Of a stretch of 64,000 nt of DNA, positions 43,396 through 63,168 are shown in pieces. The stretch lies in the sequence record OQ718158.1, one strand, 5' to 3'. The position numbers and the translations under genes are program-made. This stretch comes from Escherichia phage vB_Ec-M-J. Position 1 is the first letter of the stretch. Each line of letters opens with the position of its first letter. Under the pieces are notes generated by a model. The model saw only the letters and a list, made by a program, of their open reading frames with translations. It was not told where the DNA came from and made no database searches.

Positions 43396-44151
43396 CAAAA
43401 TTTTATTTTGTTTTTCCAATAGTTCCCCTACCGCGTGGGGATAGTTTCCCCGCAGTATCTGGAGTTAGATTTTTCTGAATCTGGAATCATTATCTTATAA
43501 ACTGGGGGCAATGTCAACGACCTGGACGGATATTTTTAAAAATTTTTTCAGTACTGAATTTTGGGCGTAACTATGCACCCGGTGGGCTTGAGTCTTTCTC
43601 GACTTGATGGAACTATTATACAGTACTGAAAAAATAAAGCAATACCCTGGAAGCAAAAAAGTTTTAATTAATTTGCTTGCTATCCTGGGCCGGACTATGG
43701 TACTATATTTCAGTACTGAGAAAGTGCGTTTACCTGCTAGGGTGCGGGAGTGTATCCTTTTTTTATATCTTGAATTTTGGGCGTAATTCCGCACCCTCTG
43801 GGGTTTCCGCTTTCTCGCGTCTATGTAGTAATTATACGCTTTTTCAGGATCAAGTCAATACCTAAAAACAAAATAATTGAAAATAATTTAACGCGTTTAA
43901 ACGGCCCGTAAAGCCCTGGAATGATTGGAATGGTGCAAATGTATAGCTTAGGTGTATTAATGCGTTAGAATGCGTCTGAGGCCGTTTTACGGGGTATAGG
44001 GATGATTTGGTGGATTGATTCAGTACTGAATGATAGTACTACTATATAGAAAGATAGTTCCCCTGGATGGTTGCAGTACTGAATGATAGTACTGAATAAT
44101 AGTTCCCCTATATAGAAAGAAAACTATTTTAAAAGTATTTGTAGAAAGTAC

Positions 44152-44179
44152 TTGCAAACTAAGTTTAACGGCGTATAAT
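44152..44179 (+). promoter_or_regulatory. class-A early promoter
   Basis: AAAGTACTTGCAA-N16-TATAATGTTTTACATC, one of about 30 near-identical copies. Confidence 0.7.
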
Positions 44180-44234
44180 GTTTTACATCGAGAGCGGGAA
44201 CACTTCCCGCTACATATTACGAGAGATTAAAACG

Positions 44235-44597
44235 ATGGCGACTCAAATCACTAAAATTATTGCTAACCTGGTTAACTTTCGCGACGAGATGAAAGATCTT
44301 CCGGCAGAAACGGTAAAAATTCACATTTCAGCTTATCGGGAACTTATTGCAATGTTACCGCTTAAGCGTGAACAATACGCCGCGACCGTGATGCTTGATG
44401 CGATGATCCATAAGATGATCGCCAGTGATTTAACGATGGTTTATCAGTATATGGGCGAAAATTTCGCGGTGTATAGTAAACCAGTACCAGGAATGGAAAG
44501 TACAGAAGTATTACACGGTTTAAATTTAAAACAAGATGCATGGGATAATATGCCTCGTTTCCTGGTATGGGCTGACAGTGGCAAGATTTACGAATAA
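44235..44597 (+). CDS. small early-type ORF (hypothetical)
   Basis: track ORF trimmed to ATG after class-A promoter and GC hairpin. Confidence 0.55.
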   Translation: MATQITKIIANLVNFRDEMKDLPAETVKIHISAYRELIAMLPLKREQYAATVMLDAMIHKMIASDLTMVYQYMGENFAVYSKPVPGMESTEVLHGLNLKQDAWDNMPRFLVWADSGKIYE

Positions 44598-44611
44598 GTT
44601 TTAAAAAGTAC

Positions 44612-44639
44612 TTGCAAACTAAGTTTAAAAGCGTATAAT
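44612..44639 (+). promoter_or_regulatory. class-A early promoter
   Basis: same consensus; hairpin at 44651..44671. Confidence 0.7.
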
Positions 44640-44691
44640 GTTTTACATCAGGTGGGGAATAGTTCCCCACTATAATTAAGAGATTAATTTC

Positions 44692-44925
44692 ATGAGTACT
44701 ATTTTAACTGTTTCTCAATCCGTTGCACTGACTGACCTATTAAACGCTTTAAGCCGTTGCACTGAGGTTGGCTTGTTTGATGTGGTAGACGTTGCACCGG
44801 ACGTTATTAATCATTTTTGTGATGCGATGGAAGAATGTAAGGAAGATGATAGCCGTATGATGGCGGTCGCCTTTGAGGAAGTACAACCAGGTGAGATCAA
44901 AGGTTTACCAGTACTGAAAAAATAG
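44692..44925 (+). CDS. small early-type ORF (hypothetical)
   Basis: behind class-A promoter and hairpin GGTGGGGAATAGTTCCCCACT. Confidence 0.55.
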   Translation: MSTILTVSQSVALTDLLNALSRCTEVGLFDVVDVAPDVINHFCDAMEECKEDDSRMMAVAFEEVQPGEIKGLPVLKK

Positions 44926-44928
44926 TAC

Positions 44929-44956
44929 TTGCAAACTAAGTTTAAAAGCGTATAAT
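44929..44956 (+). promoter_or_regulatory. class-A early promoter
   Basis: same consensus; hairpin at 44968..44988. Confidence 0.7.
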
Positions 44957-45007
44957 ACTTTCTATCAGGTGGGGAATAGTTCCCCACTATATAAGAGGAT
45001 TTAAAAA

Positions 45008-45247
45008 ATGGCTAAATCAAAAATGTTCTTAGGTCACAAAAACAAAACTCATTGGAATGTAAGCCTTTGGATTAATAACGATGAGTCATTGTACCGGTTG
45101 GCCCAGGACTTTATTAACGATAGCACTAATCGCAATGATGCGGCCCGTCATATGATGTTATTTTTAGAACAGACTGGACAAGATAAAACACCGGACGGAT
45201 TCAAATATAGCACTACTGCGATCCGTGCGGCGATGGTTGGAATGTAA
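45008..45247 (+). CDS. small early-type ORF, paralog of 47111..47350
   Basis: shared HKNKTHWNVSLWINN and C-terminal TPDGFKYSTTAIRAAMVGM. Confidence 0.65.
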   Translation: MAKSKMFLGHKNKTHWNVSLWINNDESLYRLAQDFINDSTNRNDAARHMMLFLEQTGQDKTPDGFKYSTTAIRAAMVGM

Positions 45248-45335
45248 TAGAATAGAATTTATTTAAAGTACTATTGCACGGGGATAGTACTTTATAATAG
45301 TGTTTTATTCATACACCAACGATAAGGGCAACAGC

Positions 45336-45602
45336 ATGAATATTAAGTATTTTGCGACGCGTGAACAAGCTCGGATCGCCGCACGGCAGGACGGGGCAAC
45401 GTTTAAAGATATGGGCGTACAATCGGAACGTGGTAAACGTTGGGCCATTGTAAAGCGTAGTACCGCCAGATCATTACAGTACTGGTTAGCGGCCTTAAAA
45501 AGTCCCGATAGTGTATCGCGTCGAGTGGTAGAAATAAAGCTCGACCGAAAGGGCAACCGCGTGACTGTGTACCGTACTAAAAAGATTGCAGTACTTGAAT
45601 AA
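45336..45602 (+). CDS. small early-type ORF, paralog of 57850..58245
   Basis: track ORF trimmed to ATG after AAGGGCAACAGC; shared FATREQARI...RKGNRVTVY. Confidence 0.6.
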   Translation: MNIKYFATREQARIAARQDGATFKDMGVQSERGKRWAIVKRSTARSLQYWLAALKSPDSVSRRVVEIKLDRKGNRVTVYRTKKIAVLE

Positions 45603-45609
45603 AAAGTAC

Positions 45610-45637
45610 TTGCAAACTATGTTTAATGGCGTATAAT
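45610..45637 (+). promoter_or_regulatory. class-A early promoter
   Basis: TTGCAA-N16-TATAAT then GCGGGAACACTTCCCGC hairpin. Confidence 0.7.
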
Positions 45638-45689
45638 GTTTTACATCGAGAGCGGGAACACTTCCCGCCTATAACCTGGAGTAATAAAA

Positions 45690-45920
45690 ATGACTAATAT
45701 GTATATGACTGAAGTTAAAACCGTAAAAGATACTACCACGAATAAAACTACTTACTTACAGCGGATCTGCGGTGTATGGCAACGTATCAGCAAATCAAAG
45801 TACTTTAAATTAACATCATATGCAAACCGTTCGGATTCATTCAGTACTGAAATAAAAGGTAATAAAGTACACCAATACGGCACTTATTATTATTATAGCC
45901 TGGACGCGATTGCAGTCTAA
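45690..45920 (+). CDS. small early-type ORF (hypothetical)
   Basis: behind class-A promoter and hairpin; GGAG RBS. Confidence 0.55.
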   Translation: MTNMYMTEVKTVKDTTTNKTTYLQRICGVWQRISKSKYFKLTSYANRSDSFSTEIKGNKVHQYGTYYYYSLDAIAV

Positions 45921-46201
45921 GCAGTTTACAAATCTTTACAATTGCCGGTATTGACTTATTTTGTCAGTACTGGCATAATGTATTCATTGGCAGATAAGCC
46001 GTAGCCCATAGGGTGCGGGAGTGTATCTATAGAAAAATTAGTTTAGTACAGTTACAATTGTGCACCCGGTGGGTTAGCTGTTGTCATGGGGTATATTATG
46101 CCAGTACTTGATAATGCTGTCAATACTTTTTTAATATTCAGTACTGAAAACTATTTTTAAAAAGTACTTGCAAACTATGTTTAAAGGCGTATAATGTTTT
46201 A

Positions 46202-46276
46202 CATCAGGACGGGGAACGAAATAAGTAACTTCCCGTTAAGTAGCCCAGGAGTAAGGCACACGAAAAACTCCCCTGA
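46202..46276 (+). ncRNA. candidate structured leader or small RNA, copy A
   Basis: ORF-free transcribed segment between two promoters; ATCAGG...CCTGAT closing stem plus inner ACGGG/CCCGT stem. Confidence 0.35.
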
Positions 46277-46327
46277 TAAAATAGTTTGACAATTGTTTTT
46301 AAAAGCGTATAATACTTACATCAACTA

Positions 46328-46453
46328 CTGAATGAGGGTTACAAAATGAAAACTATCACTACTACTACTTTCGTTATGGATTTTTCTGAATTGAATGAGG
46401 GTTGCAAAGCGAAAACTGTCACTAATACTACTTTCGTTATGGATTTTTCTGAA
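46328..46453 (+). repeat. 63-bp tandem duplication spanning the start of gene 46346
   Basis: TGAATGAGGGTT(A/G)CAAA...TTTCGTTATGGATTTTTCTGAAT occurs twice. Confidence 0.7.
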
Positions 46454-47020
46454 TTGAACGCAGAACAAAAAACGTCAGCTATCGAACTGGTTCGGGAACG
46501 TGAAAAAAACTTAAACGATGATTATTTTTCTGAAAGTGAAATTGAATACTATAAAGAAACAGTACTACCGGAATATGGCATTAATGACGCTGAAATACAA
46601 TTCAGTGGTTTTTGGTCCCAGGGTGACGGTGCATCAATCAGTACTGACCACGTTGACGCAGTGAAGTTTTTACGCAAGGTAAGAGCATTAACTAAATATC
46701 GCTCAATCCGTCACTTGCTGAATGAAGATGATTTGGCGATGAGTGTAAAGCGTTCTCACTCCCACTACTCGCATGAGAATACTGTAAGCGGGTACATTGA
46801 ATCGGCTTACACTGATTTAACCGCAAAACAAGAAACGTTAGTTAATGAGCTTGAGGAACTACTCACTGAAACTATTCGTGAATTATCCCGCAAGTTGTAC
46901 CGTGATTTAGAGAATGCATATGAGGATCAATTCACTACTGAAAACATTACGGCACTGATTGAGGGTAACGAATATCAATTCAATGTTATTAATGGCGTAG
47001 TAGAATCAATCGAATATTAA
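46346..47020 (+). CDS. hypothetical protein with 21-aa N-terminal tandem duplication
   Basis: 224-aa track ORF; 63-bp direct duplication spans the start region. Confidence 0.6.
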   Translation: MKTITTTTFVMDFSELNEGCKAKTVTNTTFVMDFSELNAEQKTSAIELVREREKNLNDDYFSESEIEYYKETVLPEYGINDAEIQFSGFWSQGDGASISTDHVDAVKFLRKVRALTKYRSIRHLLNEDDLAMSVKRSHSHYSHENTVSGYIESAYTDLTAKQETLVNELEELLTETIRELSRKLYRDLENAYEDQFTTENITALIEGNEYQFNVINGVVESIEY

Positions 47021-47110
47021 TTTAAAAAGTACTTGCAAACTAAGTTTAAAGGCGTATAATACTTTATATCGAGGCGGGGAGTGGTTCCCCGCTCAAACGA
47101 GGATTAAAAA

Positions 47111-47350
47111 ATGGCTAGTACTAAAACTTACAACGGGCACAAAAACAAAACTCATTGGAATGTTTCCTTATGGATTAATAACGGTGAGTCATTGTATCGG
47201 CTTGCTCAAAGTTGCATCGCACAAAGTAGAACTAAAGATATTGCTGCGGAATGTATGTACCGCAGATTAAAAGCCAACGGTACTACTACAACGCCGGACG
47301 GATTCAAGTATAGCACTACGGCGATCCGTGCTGCAATGGTTGGAATGTAA
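47111..47350 (+). CDS. small early-type ORF, paralog of 45008..45247
   Basis: near-identical N- and C-terminal blocks; own promoter and hairpin. Confidence 0.65.
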   Translation: MASTKTYNGHKNKTHWNVSLWINNGESLYRLAQSCIAQSRTKDIAAECMYRRLKANGTTTTPDGFKYSTTAIRAAMVGM

Positions 47351-47408
47351 TATTCAGTACTGTAACAATGGCGGGGAATGGTTCCCGCCTTTATTGAGGG
47401 TTTATCTA

Positions 47409-47669
47409 ATGAGTAAAGTAATTAGCTATACAGTACTAAGCAAGTCATTATCTATTAGCCAGTGCACCGATGGTTATTGGCTATTTGATGAAACGCGTGG
47501 AATGAATTTAGCTATGCGTGCAAAAACTGCTGAGGCGGCGTATCTTGAGGCACTGGAATACTACCAGGAACGTTTAACGGAAGTAGAAGAAGATTATAAA
47601 AGCCTCAAAGCGAAAGTAGATCATTTCGTCGGTCAATTCATCGAGGAAGACGACGACAAACAATATTGA
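47409..47669 (+). CDS. small early-type ORF (hypothetical)
   Basis: track ORF trimmed to ATG after GAGGG; acidic C-terminus. Confidence 0.5.
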   Translation: MSKVISYTVLSKSLSISQCTDGYWLFDETRGMNLAMRAKTAEAAYLEALEYYQERLTEVEEDYKSLKAKVDHFVGQFIEEDDDKQY

Positions 47670-47755
47670 AAAAGTACTTGCAATTAGTTTTAAGTACTGT
47701 ATAATGGTTTACATCAAAGGGAGAAATGGTTCTCCCTGGTAATGAGGAAAATAAA

Positions 47756-47977
47756 ATGGCTAATATCACTACTCTTTCCCAACTGGAAGCACTGGTTAAA
47801 TCTATGCGGGAACATGCCGACAAAATCGGCGTACAAGATCCAGCCGTTTGCTTCTGCGACGAATTGAATGATGATACCCTGGTAATAGCAGAAGTCCAGG
47901 ACGTTTCTAACTATTCCTCGCGTTACACTGGCGGCGTAGCAAATAAAGGTGACTTCTGTTTATACCTTACAAAATAA
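47756..47977 (+). CDS. small early-type ORF (hypothetical)
   Basis: track ORF trimmed to ATG after promoter and hairpin. Confidence 0.55.
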   Translation: MANITTLSQLEALVKSMREHADKIGVQDPAVCFCDELNDDTLVIAEVQDVSNYSSRYTGGVANKGDFCLYLTK

Positions 47978-48220
47978 CAACGCGGGGAGATAATAACTCC
48001 CCGTTACTTTTTCAGTACTGAATCATTTAATAGACGGATCTCGGCACCCGGTGGGTTAGTGACTGTTTCGTCTTGATGTAGTAATTATGCCAGTACTGGA
48101 TGCACTTGTCAACAATTATTTTTCAAATACTTTTTATTAAAATACTTGCAATTAGTTTTTAAACGCGTATAATGTTTTGCATAGGGGGAGCGGTTCCCCT
48201 GGTAACTAAGGAATAAGAAA

Positions 48221-48457
48221 ATGGTCGAACAAATCAAATCAACGTCTTCGAATGTAACGGGAACGGTAGCACACTTTACTAGTGATGAATCGCGGGGCGT
48301 TCCCTATTGTGCTGTACATGTAAACACTGAGGGTAACTACTGGTTTACGGTTTACGGATCATATTCATTTGGACGGCCAGGGCATCAAAAAATTCTGGAT
48401 AAAGTACAACCAACGGGTAAAAATATCACTGCCGAAATGTTTTATAAAAAATCATAA
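48221..48457 (+). CDS. small early-type ORF (hypothetical)
   Basis: behind promoter and hairpin; AAGGAATAAG RBS. Confidence 0.55.
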   Translation: MVEQIKSTSSNVTGTVAHFTSDESRGVPYCAVHVNTEGNYWFTVYGSYSFGRPGHQKILDKVQPTGKNITAEMFYKKS

Positions 48458-48541
48458 AGTACTTGCAATTAGTTTTTAGTACTGTATAATATTTTACATC
48501 GCAAGGGGGAGCGGTTCCCCCTGGTAACTAAGGATAATCAA

Positions 48542-48841
48542 ATGAAAATTGCAATCATCGCCCTGGCTTTATCTGTTTCCTCTTTCGCTGTTAATGCGTC
48601 ATTAGATGTAAGTAGTGAAAAATTCATTCAGTGCACTGTTGCAATGACCGATGAAAGAACTGGCGAGATTGTATTAAAGGATTTAGAGATCCAGCCGGAA
48701 GCATTTAAAAACGGGCCGTTCCATGAAGAAGACGAAAAAGGTAGCACGACAATTTATTACGATGCCAGTACTAAACGCGGTTCGGTCACTGTAATGGATA
48801 CTGAGAAAGTAACTCATACTGGCGTTATTAATTGCCGTTGA
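48542..48841 (+). CDS. secreted small protein (signal peptide)
   Basis: N-terminus MKIAIIALALSVSSFAVNA; own promoter and hairpin. Confidence 0.6.
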   Translation: MKIAIIALALSVSSFAVNASLDVSSEKFIQCTVAMTDERTGEIVLKDLEIQPEAFKNGPFHEEDEKGSTTIYYDASTKRGSVTVMDTEKVTHTGVINCR

Positions 48842-48862
48842 TAGATACTACGGGGTAACATC

Positions 48863-49093
48863 ATGACTAAGCGAATTGTTTTACTTAACGAAAGCAGTAC
48901 TACACAACTACTTAACGCCGTGCATTATGATATTGAAACGAGCGTTAATCTTATCAGTACTGTCGTACTGTTGGACACTGGAAAGGTCGCCAATGATAAA
49001 GCGATTGCAGGTATATTAACGGATCTTGAGCCTGGTAGCAGTGCACCCATAACGTTAAATGGTAAAGTGTTTAATATTTTACTCACTGATTAA
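48863..49093 (+). CDS. small ORF (hypothetical)
   Basis: 76-aa track ORF co-directional with neighbours. Confidence 0.5.
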   Translation: MTKRIVLLNESSTTQLLNAVHYDIETSVNLISTVVLLDTGKVANDKAIAGILTDLEPGSSAPITLNGKVFNILLTD

Positions 49094-49327
49094 GTACATA
49101 GCCCACCTGGTGGGCTTTTTTTGTTTTTGTAGTATCGTAGTACTGAGATACTTTGAAAATAGTTTTAAAAAAGTAGTTGACATTACCGCAGAAAAGCGTA
49201 GAATGTATTACATCAAGACGGGGAGCACTAAGTAGACCGCCAGTAAGTCGAACGAAAAACTGGACACGTCGAGAAAACTTTGATACACTAATAAACGTAA
49301 ACTAAACTTTAATTGAGGATTTATAAA

Positions 49328-49810
49328 ATGGCTAATGTAAAATCATTCATCAAAGCACTGGTAGCAAATGAAACTAACGTCGCGGCTGAGATCCTGGCTG
49401 AACTGGATAACGATACCATGAAAGCGGTACGCAATAATTTTAACATCGCGTACAGTACTGCGAAAGAACTACAAGCAAATAAAGCGGCAGAAATTGAAGC
49501 GGCAAAGGCTGCCCGTGAAGCAGAACTACAAGCAACAATCGAAAGTATTCAGGCGGCAGTAGTTGGATTGGATCTGGAAGTAGTTACAGAGATGGCACAA
49601 AAAGCCCTGGCGGTTAAGTATGGGGAAGACAAGCCAGAAGTAAAAGCCAAAAAATGGATTCAGGAACGCGTAGCGGTAGTACTGGATAATGGGGAAGAAT
49701 ATCTGATTCCGGTGCGTGGTAACTGTATTGCGGTAGTACTGGACGCGATTAACGCCAGCGGTATGACTCGCGAGGAATGGATCGAATCTCATCGCAAAGT
49801 TGAAGCATAA
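49328..49810 (+). CDS. hypothetical protein (161 aa), Ala/Glu-rich
   Basis: track ORF trimmed to ATG after GAGGA; followed by strong terminator. Confidence 0.6.
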   Translation: MANVKSFIKALVANETNVAAEILAELDNDTMKAVRNNFNIAYSTAKELQANKAAEIEAAKAAREAELQATIESIQAAVVGLDLEVVTEMAQKALAVKYGEDKPEVKAKKWIQERVAVVLDNGEEYLIPVRGNCIAVVLDAINASGMTREEWIESHRKVEA

Positions 49811-49831
49811 CAATTAAAGTACTGAATCACT

Positions 49832-49857
49832 AGCCCACTGTATAAGTGGGCTTTTTT
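49832..49857 (+). terminator. rho-independent terminator
   Basis: AGCCCACTGTATAAGTGGGCT then TTTTTT. Confidence 0.7.
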
Positions 49858-50094
49858 GTGTTTATCGTTTACCAGGCCACCAGCACCGCCTAGAAACGAT
49901 TCTAACGTATTAAACTGTTTATCTGATGCATTGCCCTAGCTGGTGGCGTGAAGGTCGTTAGAATGCGATTGAGAGCGTTTAAAGTATTTTGCAAAAAGTA
50001 ATAAAAAGTACTTGCACGATTAAGAGATTAGCGTATAATGTTTTACATCGAGAGGGGGAAACGGTTCTCCTTCCAAATCAAAGGAATCAAAACA

Positions 50095-50322
50095 ATGGCT
50101 ATCGTAATCACTCGCGTAACTGGTACTACTGGCAATTCTTCTACTGTTGCTGTAATTACTAATAAGAAAGGTGCGGAATTGCATTTTGCAATGGATAAAT
50201 GGGCCGTTAATGAGTTCGGTCAGTGGGCAAGTGTAGCATACATTGAAACCTATCAAGTGCCGTCGATTAGTTTAACTGATTTGGGCGTTGAGCGTATCCT
50301 TTGCCTTGATGAATTAAATTAA
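50095..50322 (+). CDS. small early-type ORF (hypothetical)
   Basis: track ORF trimmed to ATG after promoter and hairpin. Confidence 0.55.
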   Translation: MAIVITRVTGTTGNSSTVAVITNKKGAELHFAMDKWAVNEFGQWASVAYIETYQVPSISLTDLGVERILCLDELN

Positions 50323-50407
50323 AAAAGTACTTGCAAAGTAAATCGAATAAAGTATAATACATTACATCAAGGGGAGAAATGGTTCTCCCCACTACAAGGA
50401 AACTAAA

Positions 50408-50551
50408 ATGAAAACTTGTCAATGTGGTCAGAAATCTATTACGGGTTTAAAGCGGGGCGTTGCTCTTTGCCAGTACCATTATAATTTACAAGTATGGGGT
50501 AAAGAATGGGCCGACCAGGTGGAAGCAGCAAAGAAAGCAAAAAGTAAGTAA
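50408..50551 (+). CDS. small Cys-containing ORF (47 aa)
   Basis: hand-found ORF below track threshold; CQCG...CQYH; own promoter and hairpin. Confidence 0.45.
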   Translation: MKTCQCGQKSITGLKRGVALCQYHYNLQVWGKEWADQVEAAKKAKSK

Positions 50552-50569
50552 AATATTATCACAGTACTA

Positions 50570-50598
50570 TTGACATAGTTTGATAGTACTGGCATAAT
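50570..50598 (+). promoter_or_regulatory. class-B promoter (TTGACA-N17-CATAAT flanked by AGTACT)
   Basis: CAGTACTATTGACATAGTTTGATAGTACTGGCATAAT; repeated at 50864, about 53706 and about 61900. Confidence 0.65.
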
Positions 50599-50631
50599 AG
50601 ATTTTATCAAGACAACTAAGAGGAAACAATA

Positions 50632-50844
50632 ATGGCTATCATCACAAAAATCAAAGTTAACAAATCACTGGTTAAACTTGAACAAGTGAAAGCAGGTTAT
50701 AAAGTATCGTGGTGCGGTATGTATCGGATGTTCACCGATATAGACAATGCAATCAAGTACTACACTGACACCGTTGCCTCATTCGTTCGTGCTGATGTGG
50801 TTATGGCAGTGGCAACGCACAAAGCAGCGAAAGAAAGTAAGTAA
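50632..50844 (+). CDS. small early-type ORF (hypothetical)
   Basis: behind class-B promoter TTGACA-N17-CATAAT; AAGAGGAAAC RBS. Confidence 0.55.
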   Translation: MAIITKIKVNKSLVKLEQVKAGYKVSWCGMYRMFTDIDNAIKYYTDTVASFVRADVVMAVATHKAAKESK

Positions 50845-50863
50845 AAATATTATCACAGTACTA

Positions 50864-50892
50864 TTGACATAGTTTGATAGTACTGGCATAAT
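50864..50892 (+). promoter_or_regulatory. class-B promoter
   Basis: identical block to 50570..50598. Confidence 0.65.
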
Positions 50893-50933
50893 AGATTTTA
50901 TCAAGACAACATATTAATTTAAGGAATACAAAA

Positions 50934-51257
50934 ATGGCTAAAACTATCATTAACACCGTTTCCCTGGCTGCAATCCGTGCAATCAATGTTGACGGTAAAC
51001 GTTGGACTGATTCATATGGCAATACTTATCATTCTTGTCATGTAAGCGTTGAACTGGATAACGGTTTGAATGATCTGGCGGTTGAATCATTTACTTATGG
51101 CTATGAAGATGCATATCAACAAACGGCGTTATCTCTCTTAAAGGAATCAGTAGACGGGCTTAATACTGATGAAACCTCCCTTACTCGTGTGTGCAATGAT
51201 CTTAATATCCCGTTGCATTGTACTGTACAGAATGTTAAACGCAAAAAAGATCTTTAA
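50934..51257 (+). CDS. small early-type ORF, paralog of 57431..57754
   Basis: shared RWTDSYGNTYHSCHVS and C-terminal VKRKKDL. Confidence 0.65.
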   Translation: MAKTIINTVSLAAIRAINVDGKRWTDSYGNTYHSCHVSVELDNGLNDLAVESFTYGYEDAYQQTALSLLKESVDGLNTDETSLTRVCNDLNIPLHCTVQNVKRKKDL

Positions 51258-51336
51258 TTAGCTTTACTTTATGCAGATACTTTGATATAGTGTCTGCATA
51301 GGGGAAAGAAATTAAACTACTTAAGAGGATCGTATA

Positions 51337-51606
51337 ATGAAAAATATCAGTACTTTAATCGATGCAGGTACTCATGTTCGTCGGTCTATGGTTGCAACCA
51401 GTACTACAAAACAAGTAGCGAGCGGTTATCTTGTATTTGTGCACGATGGTAAACTCCTGGAACGTTCAATCAATTTTGATGTTAAAAACAATTGCCGTTT
51501 TATTATCTTTAAGCGTGAGCAATATAAAATTGATTTACCAGCAAAGCCCATTAGTGGGGCGTACAACGTGCAATCATTGTTTGAACGTCAACCATACACC
51601 TATTAA
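51337..51606 (+). CDS. small ORF (hypothetical)
   Basis: 89-aa track ORF; AAGAGGA RBS. Confidence 0.55.
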   Translation: MKNISTLIDAGTHVRRSMVATSTTKQVASGYLVFVHDGKLLERSINFDVKNNCRFIIFKREQYKIDLPAKPISGAYNVQSLFERQPYTY

Positions 51607-51657
51607 TCAAAACATCGTTAGCGGTCGATTCAGGCCGCTTATATTGGGGATTATACC

Positions 51658-51930: not shown

Positions 51931-51935
51931 TTAAT

Positions 51936-52145: not shown

Positions 52146-52214
52146 TTTTTAAACGCGTATAATGTTTTACATGAAGGGGAGAAATGATTCTCCCCACTAA
52201 TTAAGGAATATGAA

Positions 52215-52361: not shown

Positions 52362-52442
52362 TACTTGCAATTAGTTTTTAGTACTGTATAATGTTTTACA
52401 TGAAGGGGAGAAATGATTCTCCCCAATAACAGGAGAAACAAA

Positions 52443-55144: not shown

Positions 55145-55501
55145 ATGGGAATACAACATATCACGCGTACTACTGACAATGGCGAGATCACTGGCTATCA
55201 AGTACAGGGCAAAGTAGCACAATTGCAGTACTGGTTTGTTAAACGTGGAATCATTGCACCGGATCTTGATTATGACCGTGTAGCGTTTATTGATTCTCTT
55301 TATGTTGATCCTGATAGTCGGGGGAATGGTGAAGGTAACGAATTAATGAATGCCTTTATTGATGCCGCCGATGATTCAGATTGTATCATCTTAGAATGCG
55401 ATACGGGAGAAGATAACGCCTTTAATCTTAAAGAATGGTATGAAGGTTTCGGATTCGAGGTACTGATCGATAGTGAATATCCTATCATGATTTTATCATA
55501 G
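55145..55501 (+). CDS. small GNAT-like acetyltransferase (putative)
   Basis: LYVDPDSRGNGEGNELMNAFIDAA resembles GNAT acetyl-CoA-binding motif A. Confidence 0.4.
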   Translation: MGIQHITRTTDNGEITGYQVQGKVAQLQYWFVKRGIIAPDLDYDRVAFIDSLYVDPDSRGNGEGNELMNAFIDAADDSDCIILECDTGEDNAFNLKEWYEGFGFEVLIDSEYPIMILS

Positions 55502-55580
55502 TACTTGCATTTAGTTTTCAGTACTGTATAATAGTTTACATGAAGGGGAGAATAGTTCTCCCCACTACAAGGAAAGACAA

Positions 55581-55769
55581 ATGGAAAACTTATCAAGTAT
55601 TTTAGTACAAGATGATTTCGGTAATCCTGGAAGTGCTATCATTGTTCGGGGTAATAAAGCAACGTTTGTTATTGCTGGTGGACCCGTACAGCGTAGCATT
55701 AAAAATAATGCTGTTACCATTAATAATGTACGCTATCGCTTAGATAAAGAATTAATTCATAAACTGTAA
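55581..55769 (+). CDS. small early-type ORF (hypothetical)
   Basis: behind class-A promoter and hairpin. Confidence 0.55.
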   Translation: MENLSSILVQDDFGNPGSAIIVRGNKATFVIAGGPVQRSIKNNAVTINNVRYRLDKELIHKL

Positions 55770-55855
55770 AAAAGTACTGGACAATAGATTATAGTACTGT
55801 ATAATAAGTTACATGAAGGGGAGAAAATGATTCTCCCCACTAAGAGGAAAGAAAA

Positions 55856-56068
55856 ATGCAAGGTCAACTAATCGTTCGTAAATGGTCTGATACTAACGCT
55901 AAACCGTGGGATGTACAATACATCGCCCCCAATGGTGAATCCAGATATCAACCAGGTGTAACGCATAGTACTGAGCAATTCGCCGCCGCTCATCGTGAAC
56001 GTCTGTTACAATCAATGCAGCAAGGTTTCGGTGAAAAATTCATTCAGGATCATTGGCTGAAAGATTAA
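55856..56068 (+). CDS. small early-type ORF (hypothetical)
   Basis: behind TTGGACA-type promoter and hairpin. Confidence 0.55.
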   Translation: MQGQLIVRKWSDTNAKPWDVQYIAPNGESRYQPGVTHSTEQFAAAHRERLLQSMQQGFGEKFIQDHWLKD

Positions 56069-56154
56069 AAAGTTCTTGCACAGTACTGAATAAAGTGTAT
56101 AATGTTTTATATCGAGAGGGGAATAGTTCCCCTCCTAACAAAAAGGAAAGTATA

Positions 56155-56474: not shown

Positions 56475-56488
56475 AAATAATTGAAAAA

Positions 56489-56521
56489 GGGATTGACTCC
56501 GGTCAGTCCCTTTGCTATTAT
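56489..56521 (+). terminator. fused terminator-promoter module, UCCG-loop variant
   Basis: GGGATTGAC-TCCG-GTCAGTCCC then TTTGCTATTATAT. Confidence 0.6.
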
Positions 56522-56656
56522 ATACGCATAGAAACAAATTAGCCCACCGGGTGCATAAATGTATCTATTGTTTGCTGGTGGCTAGTACTATCAAGTACTG
56601 AAAACTATTTTTAAAAAGTACTTGCAAAGTATCACGATAAGCGTATAATGTTTTAC

Positions 56657-56729
56657 ATCAGGACGGGGAACGAAACAAGTAACCCCGTTAAGTAGTCCAG
56701 GAGTAAGACATACGAAAAACTCCCCTGAT
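56657..56729 (+). ncRNA. candidate structured leader or small RNA, copy B
   Basis: about 90% identical to copy A, with stem-preserving differences. Confidence 0.35.
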
Positions 56730-56798
56730 AAAATAGTTTGACAATAGAAAGTAAACGAGTATAATACTTACATCAACCACTGATAAGGAAACATTAAA

Positions 56799-57074
56799 AT
56801 GCGGATTCTACTGACAGCTAACGAAATCGAACAAGTACTGACTACTAACCTGGAAGACTGGAAACGTGAAGCAGATATCCAGGCGGTTCAATGGCTTAAT
56901 GATAAGTTAACGCCGGATGATTTAAGTAAGATTGTAGATCCTCAATTCTACGAAGATATTCACGACACCGCGTTAAGCGTCGAGGATGTACTTGATAAGC
57001 ACTACATTGATACTGATTTACATGTTTACGGTCGTAAAAACTTTATCACTATTCACGACATTTACAATACTTAA
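56799..57074 (+). CDS. small acidic early-type ORF
   Basis: downstream of duplicated dual-promoter cassette. Confidence 0.55.
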   Translation: MRILLTANEIEQVLTTNLEDWKREADIQAVQWLNDKLTPDDLSKIVDPQFYEDIHDTALSVEDVLDKHYIDTDLHVYGRKNFITIHDIYNT

Positions 57075-57160
57075 GTATTGACAAAGTATCTTAGTACTGT
57101 ATAATAGTTTACATCGAGAGGGGAAACGGTTCCCCTCCTAACAAAGAGAGAGAAATAAAA

Positions 57161-57343
57161 ATGGCTAAGTGCACTATCTGCAAGAAAGAAATAGTATTAG
57201 TTCCAAGTGCCCGTGAACGTGCCGCTCGGTTTGGTGGCAAAGCGTCAGACTATACAAAAATGTTTACTGCCCATACAGCTTGCCAGGTAGCAAAACGTTC
57301 ACAAGAAAGCGTAGAATTAATGCGTAAACTTTCCAAAAAATAA
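57161..57343 (+). CDS. small early-type ORF with Cys pairs
   Basis: CTICKK...HTACQ; behind promoter and hairpin. Confidence 0.55.
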   Translation: MAKCTICKKEIVLVPSARERAARFGGKASDYTKMFTAHTACQVAKRSQESVELMRKLSKK

Positions 57344-57430
57344 GTATTGACAAAGTATCTTAGTACTGTATAATAGTTTACATCAAGCGAGGGGAATGGT
57401 TCCCCTCCTAACAAAGAGAGAGAAATAAAA

Positions 57431-58267: not shown

Positions 58268-58292
58268 GGCGGGATCAGTTCCCGCCTTTTTT
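58268..58292 (+). terminator. rho-independent terminator
   Basis: GGCGGGATCAGTTCCCGCC then TTTTTT. Confidence 0.7.
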
Positions 58293-58306
58293 ATAGGACA
58301 AACAAC

Positions 58307-59749: not shown

Positions 59750-59763
59750 AAAAGATTAAAAAA

Positions 59764-59796
59764 GGGATTGACTCCGGTCAGTCCCTTTGCTATTAT
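59764..59796 (+). terminator. fused terminator-promoter module, UCCG-loop variant
   Basis: identical to module at 56489. Confidence 0.6.
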
Positions 59797-59973
59797 ATAT
59801 TCATTGAGAGATAACTCACTGACCCATAGGGTGCGGAAGTGTATCTATTATATAAGTATTCAGTACTGAAAACTATTTTAAAAAAAAGTACTTGCATTGT
59901 ACTTAGAATCAAGTATAATGTTTTATATCGAGAGGGGGAAATGGTTCTCCCTGGTATATTAAGGAATAAAATC

Positions 59974-60195
59974 ATGACTACAATGACTTGCATTTACGCT
60001 TCCAATCTTCTGAATGATGCGGCCTTTAATGTTGATTCAGAATATCAATGTTATCGGGATGAAAATAAAAAAGTTTTTGTAGTTGATAATAATGGTTTCC
60101 ATATTGAATTACAATCCGGCTTCACTGGCGTTGATGGTAAATCAGTATGGGGCGTACAGGATGATAAAGGTACATATCATTTTAAACGTAATTAA
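59974..60195 (+). CDS. small early-type ORF (hypothetical)
   Basis: track ORF trimmed to ATG after promoter and hairpin. Confidence 0.55.
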   Translation: MTTMTCIYASNLLNDAAFNVDSEYQCYRDENKKVFVVDNNGFHIELQSGFTGVDGKSVWGVQDDKGTYHFKRN

Positions 60196-60278
60196 GTATT
60201 GACAAAGTATCTTAGTACTGTATAATAGTTTACATCAAGGGGAGAATAGTTCTCCCCGATACTAAAAGGAATAAAATC

Positions 60279-60686
60279 ATGACTACTACTAATCAAGCTC
60301 GGTCCATCGCCAACGATAAAAATCATGCTGAAATGGTCGCTGGTTACATTGAAGCTATGCAATTCAGTACTGTACACAATGAGAACGGCGAATACCTGGA
60401 AGATTATGAATTATCAGAGCAAGCCCATCAAGCGGCAGTGATTGCATGTTCACGTTTCCTTGCTGTACATGGTGAAGATATGGAAACAGTACAAAAACAC
60501 CATAATCCTGATTATACTTATAGTCATGCGGGTCATGATCTCTTTCTTACTCGCGAAGGTCACGGCACTGGTTTTTGGGATCGTGATATCGGTCACTATG
60601 ATGATATATTCACTAAGTACTGCGAAGAAATCAACGTTTGCGATCCCTATGTAGGCGATGATAATCTAATCTATATGGGCGAATAA
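60279..60686 (+). CDS. small early-type ORF, His/Asp-rich
   Basis: 135-aa track ORF behind promoter and hairpin. Confidence 0.55.
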   Translation: MTTTNQARSIANDKNHAEMVAGYIEAMQFSTVHNENGEYLEDYELSEQAHQAAVIACSRFLAVHGEDMETVQKHHNPDYTYSHAGHDLFLTREGHGTGFWDRDIGHYDDIFTKYCEEINVCDPYVGDDNLIYMGE

Positions 60687-60773
60687 AAGTATTTGACAAA
60701 GTATATCAGTACTGTATAATAGTTTACATCAAGGGGAGAATAGTTCTCCCCACCAATAAAAGGAAACAAAATT

Positions 60774-61046: not shown

Positions 61047-61234
61047 CAGTAGAAGAAGTTAAAAAAGTACTGGCAGTACTACGCTATCATAATCATTGCA
61101 AGGTGAAGAATGATCCTGATTATCTCGATTCATCCCTGGAAGAGGATACACTACAAGCAATAAGCCATATGCAAAAAATGCTTAAGCGTATGACCGAAAA
61201 GAATAGGCCGGACTATATCGGAAATAAAATTTAA
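61043..61234 (+). CDS. small ORF, translationally coupled
   Basis: ATGA overlap with upstream gene. Confidence 0.5.
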   Translation: MTVEEVKKVLAVLRYHNHCKVKNDPDYLDSSLEEDTLQAISHMQKMLKRMTEKNRPDYIGNKI

Positions 61235-61321
61235 AAAGTACTTGCATTGTAGTTAGATTAACGTATAATGTTTTATATCGAGAGGGGGAAATGGTTTCCC
61301 CTCAAGTCCAGGAGATACACC

Positions 61322-61585
61322 ATGAACACTATCGAAATCACTATCAATGCACACGTATACGACAACGTAGTACTGCAAACTACTATGACCGCTAATGATA
61401 CCAGTACTTTGCGGAATACTGTTATTAGTGCCGTATGTGCTGCAATCGGTGATGTCGCCCTGGAAAATGCAGAACACATCAACAACGGTTTCACTATGTG
61501 CAAACGTGATAACGCAAAACATATCATCGTAGAAGGTTACGGCGGTGTAGAATTTAATGTTTATATGAAAAAAGTACTTGCATAA
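61322..61585 (+). CDS. small early-type ORF (hypothetical)
   Basis: track ORF trimmed to ATG after promoter and hairpin. Confidence 0.55.
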   Translation: MNTIEITINAHVYDNVVLQTTMTANDTSTLRNTVISAVCAAIGDVALENAEHINNGFTMCKRDNAKHIIVEGYGGVEFNVYMKKVLA

Positions 61586-61652
61586 TAACTAAAACAAAGT
61601 ATAATGTTTTGCATAGGGGGAGATATCCTCCCCCACTAAAAGGAGTAATAAA

Positions 61653-61877
61653 ATGGCTAACTTTGATGAACTGATGCGGGAAGTAGCTAACCTGGCAGAA
61701 GAGAAGAAATCATTCGATTCTATCTATAACACCGCTCACCGTGATTCAGTACTGGCATGTAACCAGGATCAAAAAGATGAACTAATCGCCACCTATCATG
61801 AAGCATGGAAGTACTACCGACAATGGGAGAAAGAAGAAAGTGAGTCTACCATCGAAGGTATCAATAATCTAATCTAA
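61653..61877 (+). CDS. small early-type ORF (hypothetical)
   Basis: behind promoter and hairpin; AAGGAG RBS. Confidence 0.55.
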   Translation: MANFDELMREVANLAEEKKSFDSIYNTAHRDSVLACNQDQKDELIATYHEAWKYYRQWEKEESESTIEGINNLI

Positions 61878-61953
61878 AAGTTTTATTTCAGTACTATTGA
61901 CATAGCTTGATAGTACTGATGTAATAACTTTACTAACTACAAGGGGAAACATA

Positions 61954-62211
61954 ATGGATCAATTCACACAATATCGGGTAAATCCTCAATCTATGGCCTA
62001 CGTAGAAGACCATAAAACGTTACCAGTACTGCAACCAGTTAAAGGCCGTATCTATCGTGGCCTTGCCTGGGATACGGCCCAGGATGGATATAAAACCGTC
62101 GCCGTGGGGATGTATTGCGGGAATGGTGAATGGTTTGATCCTAACAATCCGATTGCACTTGACAGTACTGAAAAAATGAAATGGGCCGACTACATCGAAG
62201 ATATTTCATAA
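61954..62211 (+). CDS. small early-type ORF (hypothetical)
   Basis: behind class-B promoter. Confidence 0.55.
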   Translation: MDQFTQYRVNPQSMAYVEDHKTLPVLQPVKGRIYRGLAWDTAQDGYKTVAVGMYCGNGEWFDPNNPIALDSTEKMKWADYIEDIS

Positions 62212-62301
62212 AAACTATTTGACAGTACTAACCAGTAATGTATAATGTTTTACATAGAGCGGGGGAATAGTTCTCCCGCCAATAGTTTGGAGTTAAACAT
62301 T

Positions 62302-62502
62302 ATGTCTATCGCTATCGCCCTGGTTGAAGTACTGAAAGAAGCTAAAGCCAACCTTATCGATGTACAGATTAAGGAATTGCAAAACGGCTTAATCGGCTGT
62401 ACTTGTACCGCTGGTGGAGCGGCAGACTATCGAGAACACGAATCACTCGAATCACTGGTTCGGTATCTTACCATGATCGTTGATGATTGGAGAATCATCT
62501 AA
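62302..62502 (+). CDS. small early-type ORF (hypothetical)
   Basis: track ORF trimmed to ATG after promoter and hairpin. Confidence 0.5.
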   Translation: MSIAIALVEVLKEAKANLIDVQIKELQNGLIGCTCTAGGAADYREHESLESLVRYLTMIVDDWRII

Positions 62503-62519
62503 CAAAAAAGAATAAAAAA

Positions 62520-62552
62520 GGGATTGACTCCGGTCAGTCCCTTTGCTATTAT
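62520..62552 (+). terminator. fused terminator-promoter module, UCCG-loop variant
   Basis: identical to module at 56489. Confidence 0.6.
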
Positions 62553-62746
62553 ATACGCATAGACAAAAACTAGCCCACAGGGTGCATAAGTGTATCCAAA
62601 ATATATAGTTAATAACGGTGAGTAACTATCTGCTGGTGGAGTGAAAACTATTAATAAAAAAGTATTGACAAAGTATATCAGTACTGCAATAATGTATCTC
62701 GTAGGGCGGCAATGGTGCGACGGCCCACAAAGTTAGGAGCTTCAAA

Positions 62747-63079
62747 ATGACTACTTCAATCGCTATCGTTAAAGCTTTCATCCGTACTAATGTTTCCTCT
62801 GTATTCATCGACGGCCTCGACCGTAACGTAGAATACTCAATCATTATCGCACAAACGGCAAACGGTTCTCGGTACATCCTGAATGATAGTGAAGCAAATC
62901 ACTACTACTTCACTAAAGCCACTGGCTTTAAACGCATCGATGCTGATGTAGTATACGCTAAGATGAATAAGCTGGTAGATAAGATTAACGCTAAAGGTAC
63001 TATAGATTTACAGTACTGGACCGAAACCGATCCAGAATATGGATCTCACCGCTACCTGAATCCAGGTATTAAAATGTAA
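62747..63079 (+). CDS. small early-type ORF (hypothetical)
   Basis: 110-aa track ORF; AGGAG RBS. Confidence 0.55.
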   Translation: MTTSIAIVKAFIRTNVSSVFIDGLDRNVEYSIIIAQTANGSRYILNDSEANHYYFTKATGFKRIDADVVYAKMNKLVDKINAKGTIDLQYWTETDPEYGSHRYLNPGIKM

Positions 63080-63168
63080 AAAGTACTTGCATAGTACTTA
63101 GATTCATGTATAATGTTTTACATAGAGAGGGGGAAATGGTTCTCCCTCCTAAATTAAGGAGTTTTATC

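Follow-up and report, generated by a model that had tools for sequence, protein, structure and literature searches.

Repeated early promoter cassettes with a predicted 5′-proximal hairpin in Escherichia phage vB_Ec-M-J

A stretch of 64,000 nucleotides from Escherichia phage vB_Ec-M-J (sequence record OQ718158.1), referred to here as the window, contains a block of small genes between 44 and 64 kb in which a cassette of ~90 bp recurs, spanning the interval from a small gene's stop codon to the ATG of its downstream neighbour and including an A-tract, a promoter and a short hairpin. On the + strand of this block (44143-63148), 26 such units carried a hairpin of the same family, and one more was found at 10189-10255. 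The variation among the stems favours a hairpin maintained at the level of the + strand transcript over a palindrome maintained in duplex DNA and, judged by its anatomy, the element corresponds in a jumbo phage to the PeSL cassettes of T4-type phages. This likeness was overlooked in an earlier note on the window (here the original prediction), in which about 30 early promoter units with a hairpin had been proposed. As to its role, the hairpin is put forward as a 5′-proximal stabiliser and insulator of short early mRNAs, a reading to which we give roughly even chances.

Cassette structure and number

A megablast search with the region 44100-52000 matched 164 phage records, the top ones being ~350-kb Escherichia phages of the genus Asteriusvirus at 87-97% identity, with ECO103 4-12-1, WPEC5, Turkey3, G17, Sharanji, phAPEC6, PBECO4 and 121Q as the best relatives. 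By this similarity, and by its 95-97% identity to Asteriusvirus genomes, the window comes from an Asteriusvirus-type jumbo coliphage of the PBECO4/121Q/G17 group. Every gene of the 44-64 kb block is on the + strand, and nearly all of its ~54 small open reading frames (ORFs) of at least 45 amino acids (aa) were without a Pfam match, the exceptions being a TraR/DksA zinc finger (54824-55078), a GNAT acetyltransferase (55145-55498) and a weak kinase-like match. The block is the early, ORFan-rich region of this type of phage. For the related jumbo phage CBB, an early role in host takeover has been proposed for a region whose short genes have RpoD-like promoters placed after UP-like elements (PMC5259590).

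The consensus TATAATGTTTTACATC, covering the -10 hexamer and the start region, was matched 31 times with up to three mismatches, against 3.1 matches expected, and none of 100 shuffles equalled this number; 28 of the 31 matches were on the + strand, between 44174 and 63124. The upstream motif AAAAAGTACTTGCAA gave 36 matches against 5.3 expected. For the extraction of units, each TTGNNN-N16-18-TATAAT site was taken with its downstream sequence. In all 26 hairpin units of the block the -10 was a perfect TATAAT and the spacer to the -35 was 16 bp, as had been proposed, whereas the -35 hexamers were more varied than the TTGCAA (12 units) and TTGACA (six units) named before, with TTGCAT in five, TTGCAC in two and TGGACA in one. 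The family itself proved real, although its size was the 26 units plus the outside copy, and at 46168, 49177 and 56622 a promoter of this class drives a longer, branched leader instead of a simple hairpin. Nor do the cassettes serve most of the small ORFs, as had been stated, but about half of the ~54; the others have a hairpin-less promoter, such as TTGACATAGTTTGATAGTACTGGCATAAT, or none of their own. An extended -10 was found in none of the 26 units, the TG of AGTACTGTATAAT being set flush against the hexamer and not in the TGnTATAAT register.

Upstream of the promoter, AAAAAGTAC was present without mismatch in 12 of the 26 units. The stop codon of the preceding gene lies in or beside the A-tract, for example in TAAAAAGTAC at 45598, 50320, 61231 and 63076, and the promoters start 0-15 nt past it. 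In the set of 27 formed by the block units and the outside copy, the distance from the -10 hexamer to the start of the stem is 8-14 nt, and 12 nt in 16 of the 27; most stems begin 2-4 nt past CATC and those with the CATA variant 0-2 nt past it. Stems are of 7-9 bp and loops of 3-5 nt, with a G-rich 5′ arm (94% purine) and a C-rich 3′ arm; many stems are perfect, as originally described, but a single G·T pair is present in eight of the 27. The distance from the end of the hairpin to the ATG is 14-23 nt. The 8 nt past each stem are A-rich (ACTAACAG, CTAACAAA, GGTAATAA and similar), and this spacer is followed by a strong Shine-Dalgarno (SD) sequence and the ATG of an ORF of 47-135 aa, almost always one without a Pfam match.

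No T-run was found after any of the 27 hairpins, and in a consensus terminator scan of the + strand none of the cassette hairpins was called terminator-like, in agreement with the earlier view that they are not intrinsic terminators. Rfam searches at gathering score gave no match in the whole window, and permissive searches of 46150-46330 and 45930-46130 gave chance-level matches only (E > 0.8).

Covariation and folding of the hairpin

Covariation of the stems across copies, a check suggested in the original prediction, was seen in an alignment-free arm swap, for which 31 distinct arm pairs were taken from the window and from five related loci. The mean folding energy was -12.7 kcal/mol for cognate arms against -9.5 ± 0.28 kcal/mol for re-paired arms, and none of 2000 permutations reached the cognate value. 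Compensatory stem variants included GCGGGAA/TTCCCGC, GTGGGGAA/TTCCCCAC, GAGGGGAA/TTCCCCTC, GGGGAGAA/TTCTCCCC, GGGGGAG/CTCCCCC and GGGGATGA/TCATCCCC. One stem position carries C-G, U-A, A-U or G-C in hairpins that are otherwise alike (GCGGGAA, GTGGGGAA, GAGGGGAA and GGGGAGAA), and uncultured relatives have very different stems at the same position, GACAGGAGA-tag-TCTCTTGTC and GGGAGAGAA/TTTTCTCCC among others.

A larger set of 70 distinct hairpins was obtained from 140 units. Its internal non-Watson-Crick positions were 22 of G·T against five of A/C type and two of A·A (one-sided binomial p ~8e-4 for 22 versus 5, not a true probability, as the copies are related), and in the first hairpin set they were 13 of G·T and none of A·C. 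Only in + strand RNA or + strand single-stranded DNA can a G·T position form a wobble pair; on the complementary strand it is an A·C mismatch. A duplex operator loses its symmetry at such a position, and the half-sites of these hairpins are therefore unequal in duplex DNA. The loops of the 70 hairpins were of 35 distinct sequences, 3-6 nt long.

Divergence between orthologous cassettes was 0.8% in the -10, 1.3% in the -35, 4.0% in the stems, 5.6% in coding sequence, 8.3% in the loops and 8.5% in the SD region (stem versus loop, p = 0.01; stem versus SD region, p = 1.6e-5). Within the stem, the upper part GAA/UUC was nearly invariant in the alignment of the 27 units.

Folding of 20 predicted 5′ untranslated regions (UTRs), from the predicted +1 through the start codon, gave the hairpin as the sole stable helix of the minimum-free-energy and centroid structures in all 20, with the SD sequence and the AUG unpaired in every case; as exceptions, three folds had 2-3 extra pairs beside the hairpin, and in one a weak AU helix formed just before the AUG. 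Energies were -11 to -16 kcal/mol, with z-scores mostly of -2 to -3.7 against dinucleotide shuffles. A covariance-model alignment (A2) had 87.5% paired cells and more compensatory cells than shuffles, with a +1 slide control nearly as good; it was not leaned on because variable stem and loop lengths shift its rows (28 'unpaired' at one pair).

Predicted transcription start and long-leader variants

The A and the T found 8 and 9 nt after the -10 (A14 and T15) were invariant in the alignment of the 27 units. E. coli RNA polymerase prefers a purine start 7-8 nt from the hexamer with a pyrimidine before it, and the invariant A fits the predicted +1. With the start placed there, the hairpin, put at the extreme 5′ end in the original prediction, would be preceded by an unpaired tail of 4-6 nt in most units (AUCAA, AUCGA) and of 1-3 nt in units of the GCATA type (48173, 61605 and the majority of those in Salmonella phage Munch); this GCATA type is the dominant form in Munch and in one contig of IMG/VR. 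The predicted overhang is zero in the long-leader variants, AUCAGG being paired.

These variants, all on the + strand, take the place of the simple hairpin at the three promoters mentioned above. The one at 46159-46285 (-10 at 46190-46195) has a Y-shaped leader of ~80 nt and ends at a second promoter, 46286-46313; a second copy at 56613-56737 (-10 at 56644-56649) is likewise followed by a promoter, 56738-56765; and a diverged copy at 49168-49300, with TTGACA-N16-TAGAAT (-10 at 49199-49204), keeps the motif AAGTAG ... GTAAGTCGAACGAAAA. The predicted 5′-terminal AUCAGG pairs with CCUGAU ~65 nt downstream, and in the EJP2 long leader AUCAA pairs with UUGAU, a compensatory change between phages. 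If these 5′ sequences are paired, the RNA 5′ end must therefore lie at or upstream of the invariant A, and the long leaders would thus point to selection for a paired 5′ end and give independent support to the predicted start.

The long-leader RNAs (46203-46285, 56657-56737 and 49212-49300, and also L002 6617, L003 3599, L004 1954 and L005 3616 in related loci) share a Y-shaped fold with a conserved AAGUAG junction and a covarying stem (GGAG/CUCC, CCAG/CUGG, CCUG/CAGG) that closes a conserved loop of 15-16 nt, GUAAGNCNNACGAAAA. The long leader is conserved from Asteriusvirus to Munch and Vequintavirinae, had no Rfam match, and is a candidate small RNA or regulatory leader.

Related phages and synteny breakpoints

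When the block was compared with G17, 121Q, phAPEC6 and PBECO4, 14 of 31 distinct synteny breakpoints fell in hairpin-cassette zones, which make up 14% of the block (p = 4e-5), an enrichment that is confounded because these zones are essentially intergenic DNA; 20 of the 31 fell in any promoter zone, where 27% were expected. Cassettes together with their ORFs were found, reordered and at 73-90% identity, in the Vequintavirinae phage A73, and the cassette alone had 92-96% identity in A73, A7_1, A5-4, W70 and LTH01. An IMG/VR scan with the 16-mer GTATAATGTTTTACAT gave 71 loci, among which the cassette was present only in ~350-kb contigs and in one 109-kb contig; the remaining loci were rejected as chance matches without a cassette.

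Some of the small ORFs in the block are paralogous (45008-45247 and 47111-47350; 50632-50844 and 53770-53949), an example being two 79-aa ORFs with the N-termini MAKSK/MASTK...GHKNKTHWNV. The same paralogous ORFs are present in A73 (locus L005) at 73-90% nucleotide identity and in a different order. Early ORFs of phAPEC6 were described by its annotators as similar to those of rV5, Felix O1, JS98, RB49 and N4-like phages.

Positions of the cassettes

All cassettes are on the + strand, and hairpins are given as 5′ arm, loop and 3′ arm. Cassette 1 (44143-44211) has its -35, TTGCAA, at 44152-44157 and its -10 at 44174-44179, followed by the hairpin AGCGGGAA-cac-TTCCCGCT (44193-44211) and an ATG at 44235 (120 aa). 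The hairpin GGTGGGGAA-tag-TTCCCCACT is found both in cassette 2 (44603-44671; -10 at 44634-44639, hairpin at 44651-44671, ATG at 44692, 77 aa) and in cassette 3 (44920-44988; -10 at 44951-44956, hairpin at 44968-44988, ATG at 45008, 79 aa). Cassette 4 (45601-45668; -10 at 45632-45637) carries GCGGGAA-cac-TTCCCGC at 45652-45668 before an ATG at 45690 (76 aa), cassette 5 (47024-47093; -10 at 47055-47060) carries GGCGGGGAG-tgg-TTCCCCGCT at 47073-47093 before an ATG at 47111 (79 aa), and cassette 6 (47669-47737; -10 at 47700-47705) carries AGGGAGAA-atgg-TTCTCCCT at 47718-47737 before an ATG at 47756 (73 aa).

The GCATA start variant is present in cassette 7 (48137-48201; -10 at 48168-48173), whose hairpin at 48182-48201 begins 8 nt past the -10 and precedes an ATG at 48221 (78 aa), and in cassette 24 (61569-61634; -10 at 61600-61605), with GGGGGAG-atatc-CTCCCCC at 61616-61634 and an ATG at 61653 (74 aa). 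In cassette 8 (48454-48522; -10 at 48485-48490) the hairpin is AGGGGGAG-cgg-TTCCCCCT (48504-48522; ATG at 48542, 99 aa). The 5′ arm GAGGGGGAA is shared by cassette 9 (50003-50073; -35 TTGCAC, -10 at 50034-50039), which has GAGGGGGAA-acgg-TTCTCCTTC with G·U pairs at 50052-50073 and an ATG at 50095 (75 aa), by cassette 23 (61233-61303; -10 at 61264-61269), with GAGGGGGAA-atgg-TTTCCCCTC at 61282-61303 and an ATG at 61322 (87 aa), and by cassette 26 (63078-63148; -10 at 63109-63114), with GAGGGGGAA-atgg-TTCTCCCTC at 63127-63148 and an ATG at 63169 (133 aa).

The arms GGGGAGAA and TTCTCCCC recur with different loops. They enclose atgg in cassette 10 (50322-50390; -10 at 50353-50358, hairpin at 50371-50390, ATG at 50408, 47 aa) and atga in cassettes 11 (52127-52195; -10 at 52158-52163, hairpin at 52176-52195, ATG at 52215, 48 aa) and 12 (52356-52424; -10 at 52387-52392, hairpin at 52405-52424, ATG at 52443, 50 aa). 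The loop is aaac in cassette 14 (53383-53451; -35 TTGACA, -10 at 53414-53419, hairpin at 53432-53451, ATG at 53474, 70 aa) and aatga in cassette 16 (55769-55838; -35 TGGACA, -10 at 55800-55805, hairpin at 55818-55838, ATG at 55856, 70 aa). It is tag in cassettes 15 (55496-55563; -10 at 55527-55532, hairpin at 55545-55563, ATG at 55581, 62 aa), 21 (60190-60257; -10 at 60221-60226, hairpin at 60239-60257, ATG at 60279, 135 aa) and 22 (60684-60751; -10 at 60715-60720, hairpin at 60733-60751, ATG at 60774, 90 aa).

The arms GAGGGGAA and TTCCCCTC enclose tag in cassette 17 (56067-56134; -10 at 56098-56103, hairpin at 56116-56134, ATG at 56155, 57 aa), acgg in cassette 18 (57069-57137; -35 TTGACA, -10 at 57100-57105, hairpin at 57118-57137, ATG at 57161, 60 aa) and tgg in cassette 19 (57338-57407; -10 at 57369-57374, hairpin at 57389-57407, ATG at 57431, 107 aa). 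Cassette 13 (52948-53017; -10 at 52979-52984) has AGGGGGAA-acgg-TTTCCCCT at 52998-53017 (ATG at 53037, 113 aa), cassette 20 (59883-59952; -10 at 59914-59919) has AGGGGGAA-atgg-TTCTCCCT at 59933-59952 (ATG at 59974, 73 aa), and cassette 25 (62210-62279; -10 at 62241-62246) has GCGGGGGAA-tag-TTCTCCCGC at 62259-62279 (ATG at 62302, 66 aa). Outside the block, the copy at 10189-10255 consists of TTGACA-N16-TATAAT, the hairpin GGGGATGA-acttc-TCATCCCC (10235-10255) and an ATG at 10273 (184 aa).

Other promoters, terminators and repeats

Hairpins of the same family were also found on the + strand at 47370-47397, where there is no promoter, the tail is T-rich (GGCGGGGAATGGTTCCCGCC TTTATT) and the orthologous G17 site is annotated as a terminator, and at 58268-58294, where GGCGGGATCAGTTCCCGCC TTTTTTAT has a U-tract and is a canonical terminator. 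In all, terminators were called in the block at 47370, 47982, 49100, 49832 and 58268.

A second repeated class of early promoters, without hairpin, is present at 50541-50616, 50834-50910, 53680-53746 and 61880-61935; this class, TATCACAGTACTATTGACATAGTTTGATAGTACTGGCATAAT, has a 17-bp spacer and a TG before the -10, and its leader is AU-rich and unstructured. Classic PeSL-type terminator-promoter units occur at 1100-1140, 4694-4734, 7737-7777, 12360-12400, 13838-13878 and 15250-15290, with variant units at 52828-52863, 56486-56521, 59761-59796 and 62517-62552. In such a unit, AAAAGGG-TTGACT-TCGG-TCAGCCC-TTTTTGC-TATAAT, the -35 lies inside the terminator stem and the T-run forms the spacer to the -10. 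The hairpins that contain the -35 are at 1111, 4705, 7748, 12371, 13849, 15261, 52828, 56486, 59761 and 62517, and the copies between 52 and 62 kb were called both terminator-like and promoter-like by the scan.

A further unit, CCCA-NN-GGGTGC, was found in ten copies, each with a sigma-70 promoter (often TTGAC..GGCATAAT or TATTAT) and the invariant motif ~30 nt later; six copies are on the + strand (45945, 52830, 54494, 56488, 59763 and 62519) and four on the - strand (43665, 43868, 46145 and 48125). Copies face each other at 45945/46145 and possibly at 43.5-43.9 kb, where a read-through RNA could form a long-range helix of ~11 bp. The unit had no Rfam match.

The palindrome AGTACT occurs 288 times in the window against ~23 expected from a first-order Markov model, and 147 times in 42-64 kb against 6.7. 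The related CAGTACTG was found 61 times against ~1 expected; within ORFs its copies are spread over the three codon phases (26/20/12), and intergenic DNA is enriched in them. AGTACT also takes two fixed promoter positions, as AAGTACTT overlapping the -35 and as AGTACTG just before the -10. This distribution suggests a DNA-level signal, for example a protein-binding or modification site, which would be a better operator candidate than the hairpin. Finally, the non-coding region 43240-43400 contains the direct repeats GGCTAGATGG / GGCTAAACGG / GGCTAGACG, which lie within a gene-free region of ~1.3 kb (42.9-44.1 kb) just upstream of the first cassette and might be an origin-like or protein-binding array.

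Proposed role of the hairpin

As a stabiliser and insulator, the hairpin would act together with the promoter that precedes it. The UP-like A-tract and the strong promoter would allow high initiation by the unmodified host holoenzyme, and host RNA polymerase would start ~5 nt (range 1-6) upstream of the stem, in such a way that each short early mRNA would open with the same kind of stable stem-loop (-11 to -16 kcal/mol). The stem-loop would slow 5′-end-dependent decay, which involves RppH and the 5′ sensor of RNase E, and would shield the ribosome-binding site from upstream RNA, so that dozens of unrelated small genes could be expressed uniformly. In read-through transcripts from the upstream gene it could also be a barrier to 3′ exonucleases and, at the DNA level, the repeated cassettes could be homology patches for ORFan swaps, as proposed for T4-type PeSLs. 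Among phages, the T7 gene 10 leader has a stabilising stem-loop of this kind at its 5′ end. Stabilisation of E. coli mRNAs by 5′-terminal stem-loops was described by Emory (1992) and by Bouvet & Belasco (1992), as relayed in PMC3997798.

Several observations weigh against this role. Neighbouring early genes have hairpin-less promoters (50570, 50864, 53706, 53977 and 55088), and the hairpin is therefore not needed for early expression as such. The unpaired tail of 4-6 nt predicted for most units is at or beyond the limit, about four nucleotides, that classical 5′ stem-loop stabilisers tolerate; with the hairpins of Bouvet and Belasco, protection is reportedly lost at about 4-6 nt of unpaired 5′ tail. 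The cassette copies are related by duplication, and their covariation and G·U events are not independent. The almost fixed stem orientation and the near-invariant GAA/UUC exceed what structure alone requires, which could reflect common descent or recognition by a factor. To these points are added the confounded breakpoint enrichment and a literature in which no transcriptome or mapping of transcription start sites is reported for Asteriusvirus.

An attenuator of the PeSL type, in which the stem-loop stops or pauses polymerases coming from the upstream gene and leaves each gene to its own promoter without spill-over, is an unlikely alternative, although one with experimental precedent: the RB49/phi1 PeSL stem-loop, placed between a strong promoter and lacZ, cut expression about as much as rrnB T1 (PMC2839356). 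The hairpins described here have the same composition and orientation, a G-run and then a C-run, and members of their family that have a T-run serve as terminators in the block (47370, 47982 and 58268). As the promoters lie 0-15 nt past the upstream stop codon, read-through would moreover be unavoidable unless attenuated. However, the cassette hairpins lack a U-tract in all 27 cases and run into A-rich sequence, the terminator scan called none of them, and the ARNOLD terminators of the G17 record stand only at T-run sites, none of them in promoter cassettes, while canonical terminators are used elsewhere in the block (49100, 49832 and 58268). The phi1 stem-loop is absent from the transcript of its own promoter, being at -25 to -6 in the promoter spacer, whereas the hairpin here sits between its own promoter and its own gene, and an efficient terminator would therefore silence that gene. 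Somewhat less probable is an RNA operator, by which the hairpin would tag ~30 early mRNAs for a phage or host RNA-binding protein or nuclease, leading to shut-off, processing or exemption from decay. Such a factor would account for a GAA/UUC upper stem and a purine-then-pyrimidine orientation that are conserved far beyond the needs of pairing, for a stem end at a set distance from the AUG (14-23 nt), one that the 30S platform can reach, and for an element limited to one temporal gene class. Early mRNAs of T4 are under regulon-wide post-transcriptional control by RegB and RegA, which counts for this alternative. It is opposed by the 35 loop sequences of 3-6 nt, by stems of 7-9 bp in which GACAGGAGA/TCTCTTGTC or GGGGATGA/TCATCCCC can replace the common stem, by the presence of the same cassettes in Vequintavirinae phages with a different gene complement, and by a block without a candidate binding protein, its ORFs being ORFans except for the TraR/DksA zinc finger and the GNAT acetyltransferase. 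The protein-binding site of the original prediction is thus narrowed, since the loop diversity makes a loop-reading protein unlikely and leaves room for one that reads the upper stem. To a wider form of this idea, a regulon-wide 5′ tag read by an early or middle phage protein or by a small RNA and marking phage against host mRNAs, we give the same low probability; such a tag would exempt early messages from phage-induced decay or shut ~30 genes off at the early-to-middle switch, and its recognition features would be the GAA/UUC upper stem and the purine-then-pyrimidine orientation. A site for RNase III was rejected, stems of 7-9 bp being too short according to established knowledge, and binding of CsrA or Hfq is no more than speculation.

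We also doubt that the stem-loop is a passenger of recombination without RNA function, a PeSL remnant that is copied with the cassette and offers a homology patch for ORFan shuffling. Breakpoints are enriched in the cassettes, cassette-flanked ORFs are reshuffled between Asteriusvirus and Vequintavirinae, and both classic terminator-promoter units and hairpin-less promoters occur alongside in the same genome, all of which would suit a passenger. Yet the pairing has been held through many stem sequences by compensatory changes, with non-Watson-Crick positions that are mostly G·U, the stems evolve more slowly than loops and flanks, the position of the hairpin is fixed within a few nt even in the distant Munch, and T-runs are consistently absent though family members with T-runs exist. 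The worst fit, and a very improbable one, is the DNA operator of the original prediction, an inverted repeat that would bind a dimeric regulator of the adjacent early promoter. The dyad does lie at about +6 to +26, where repressors can block promoter escape, and at one promoter class only, but its arms vary in length and in spacing (loops of 3, 4, 5 or 6 nt), they change by compensatory substitution instead of being conserved, and 22 of the 70 distinct hairpins have a G·T position, which makes the half-sites unequal, while the mirror A·C type is rare. The palindromes AAGTACTT and CAGTACTG are better operator candidates in the same promoters.

What is new is the arrangement and the host lineage, the parts being individually familiar; nothing is overturned, since PeSLs are well known and so are 5′ stabilising hairpins and sigma-70 promoters of early genes. 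The cassettes would extend promoter/stem-loop units from T4-type phages to 350-kb jumbo coliphages and Vequintavirinae, and would explain how early ORFans have been exchanged, as a mosaic, between unrelated coliphage families. The ~70 distinct natural variants of a compact cassette with promoter, 5′ hairpin and open ribosome-binding site would also be a parts library of use in studies of 5′-end-dependent mRNA decay and in the design of synthetic expression.

Comparison with known systems

In the searchable literature, no PeSL or 5′ hairpin was found described for Asteriusvirus (~350-kb phages), nor do the phAPEC6, UE-S1, CBB and rV5 papers describe such hairpins. The Rak2-like jumbo phages CBB and GAP32 (Buttimer et al. 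2017, PMC5259590) also have promoters with an A-tract and TTGACA/TATAAT among short hypothetical early genes, but these are described only up to the -10, without a downstream hairpin. Of 16 promoter-like sites in 30 kb of the CBB (Mimasvirus) early region, one had a hairpin nearby, which was of a different type; the cassette is therefore not a general feature of Rak2-like phages. Protein-binding hairpins of the boxB or coat-protein-operator type need a conserved loop sequence and size, unlike the hairpins here, with their 35 loops of 3-6 nt.

The 5′ stabilisers of ompA and papA (Emory 1992; Bouvet & Belasco 1992) are likewise short, stable hairpins near the 5′ end, placed before an unstructured ribosome-binding site. 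In them, structure and not sequence matters, which matches the loop and stem diversity found here. The T7 gene 10 leader, whose sequence we take to be GGGAGACCACAACGGTTTCCC, resembles units such as GGGGGAAACGGTTTCCCC. These systems are single genes with mapped 5′ ends, whereas here there is a family of at least 26 copies with predicted starts. In addition, the overhang of 4-6 nt predicted for most copies is at or beyond the limit tolerated with ompA and papA, and the GGGAGA start of the T7 leader is dictated by the promoter of T7 RNA polymerase, in contrast to the host sigma-70 holoenzyme expected here.

The closest likeness is with the PeSLs, for which RB49/phi1, T4/PST and KVP40/nt-1 are the reference phages (Arbiol et al. 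2010, PMC2839356; Comeau et al. 2014, PMC4122927). A PeSL combines a consensus sigma-70 early promoter and a Gn-loop-Cn stem-loop with an AT-rich tract, in which the preceding gene's stop codon lies, and with the SD/ATG of an ORFan (PMC2839356), and PeSLs are concentrated in hyperplastic regions, where they mediate ORFan shuffling (PMC2839356, PMC4122927). ORFan mini-circles, which would arise when flanking PeSLs recombine, count as a further mark of the group. Both kinds of element are units of ~100 bp from an upstream stop codon to the SD/ATG of a small ORFan, with a near-consensus sigma-70 promoter, an AT-rich upstream tract and a Gn-loop-Cn stem-loop; both occur in many copies in a hyperplastic early region, and gene replacements between close relatives break at them. 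They differ in the place of the stem-loop. In PeSLs it is in or upstream of the promoter, is transcribed by read-through only and is terminator-like: in phi1, which was checked directly, AGGGGATC-ggt-GATCCCCT and GGGGAG-gataa-CTCCCC are at -25 to -6, in the promoter spacer, and in PST the stem-loop is upstream of the promoter (PMC4122927). In the cassettes of the window, the stem begins 8-14 nt past the -10, has no U-tract after it and would, by prediction, be transcribed from the cassette's own promoter. With the stem downstream of the predicted start, the terminator-before-promoter arrangement of PeSLs is therefore not shared, and the jumbo-phage counterpart would represent a functional shift, the stem-loop having moved from the promoter, where it has a terminator role, into the 5′ UTR, where it would have a role in the mRNA.

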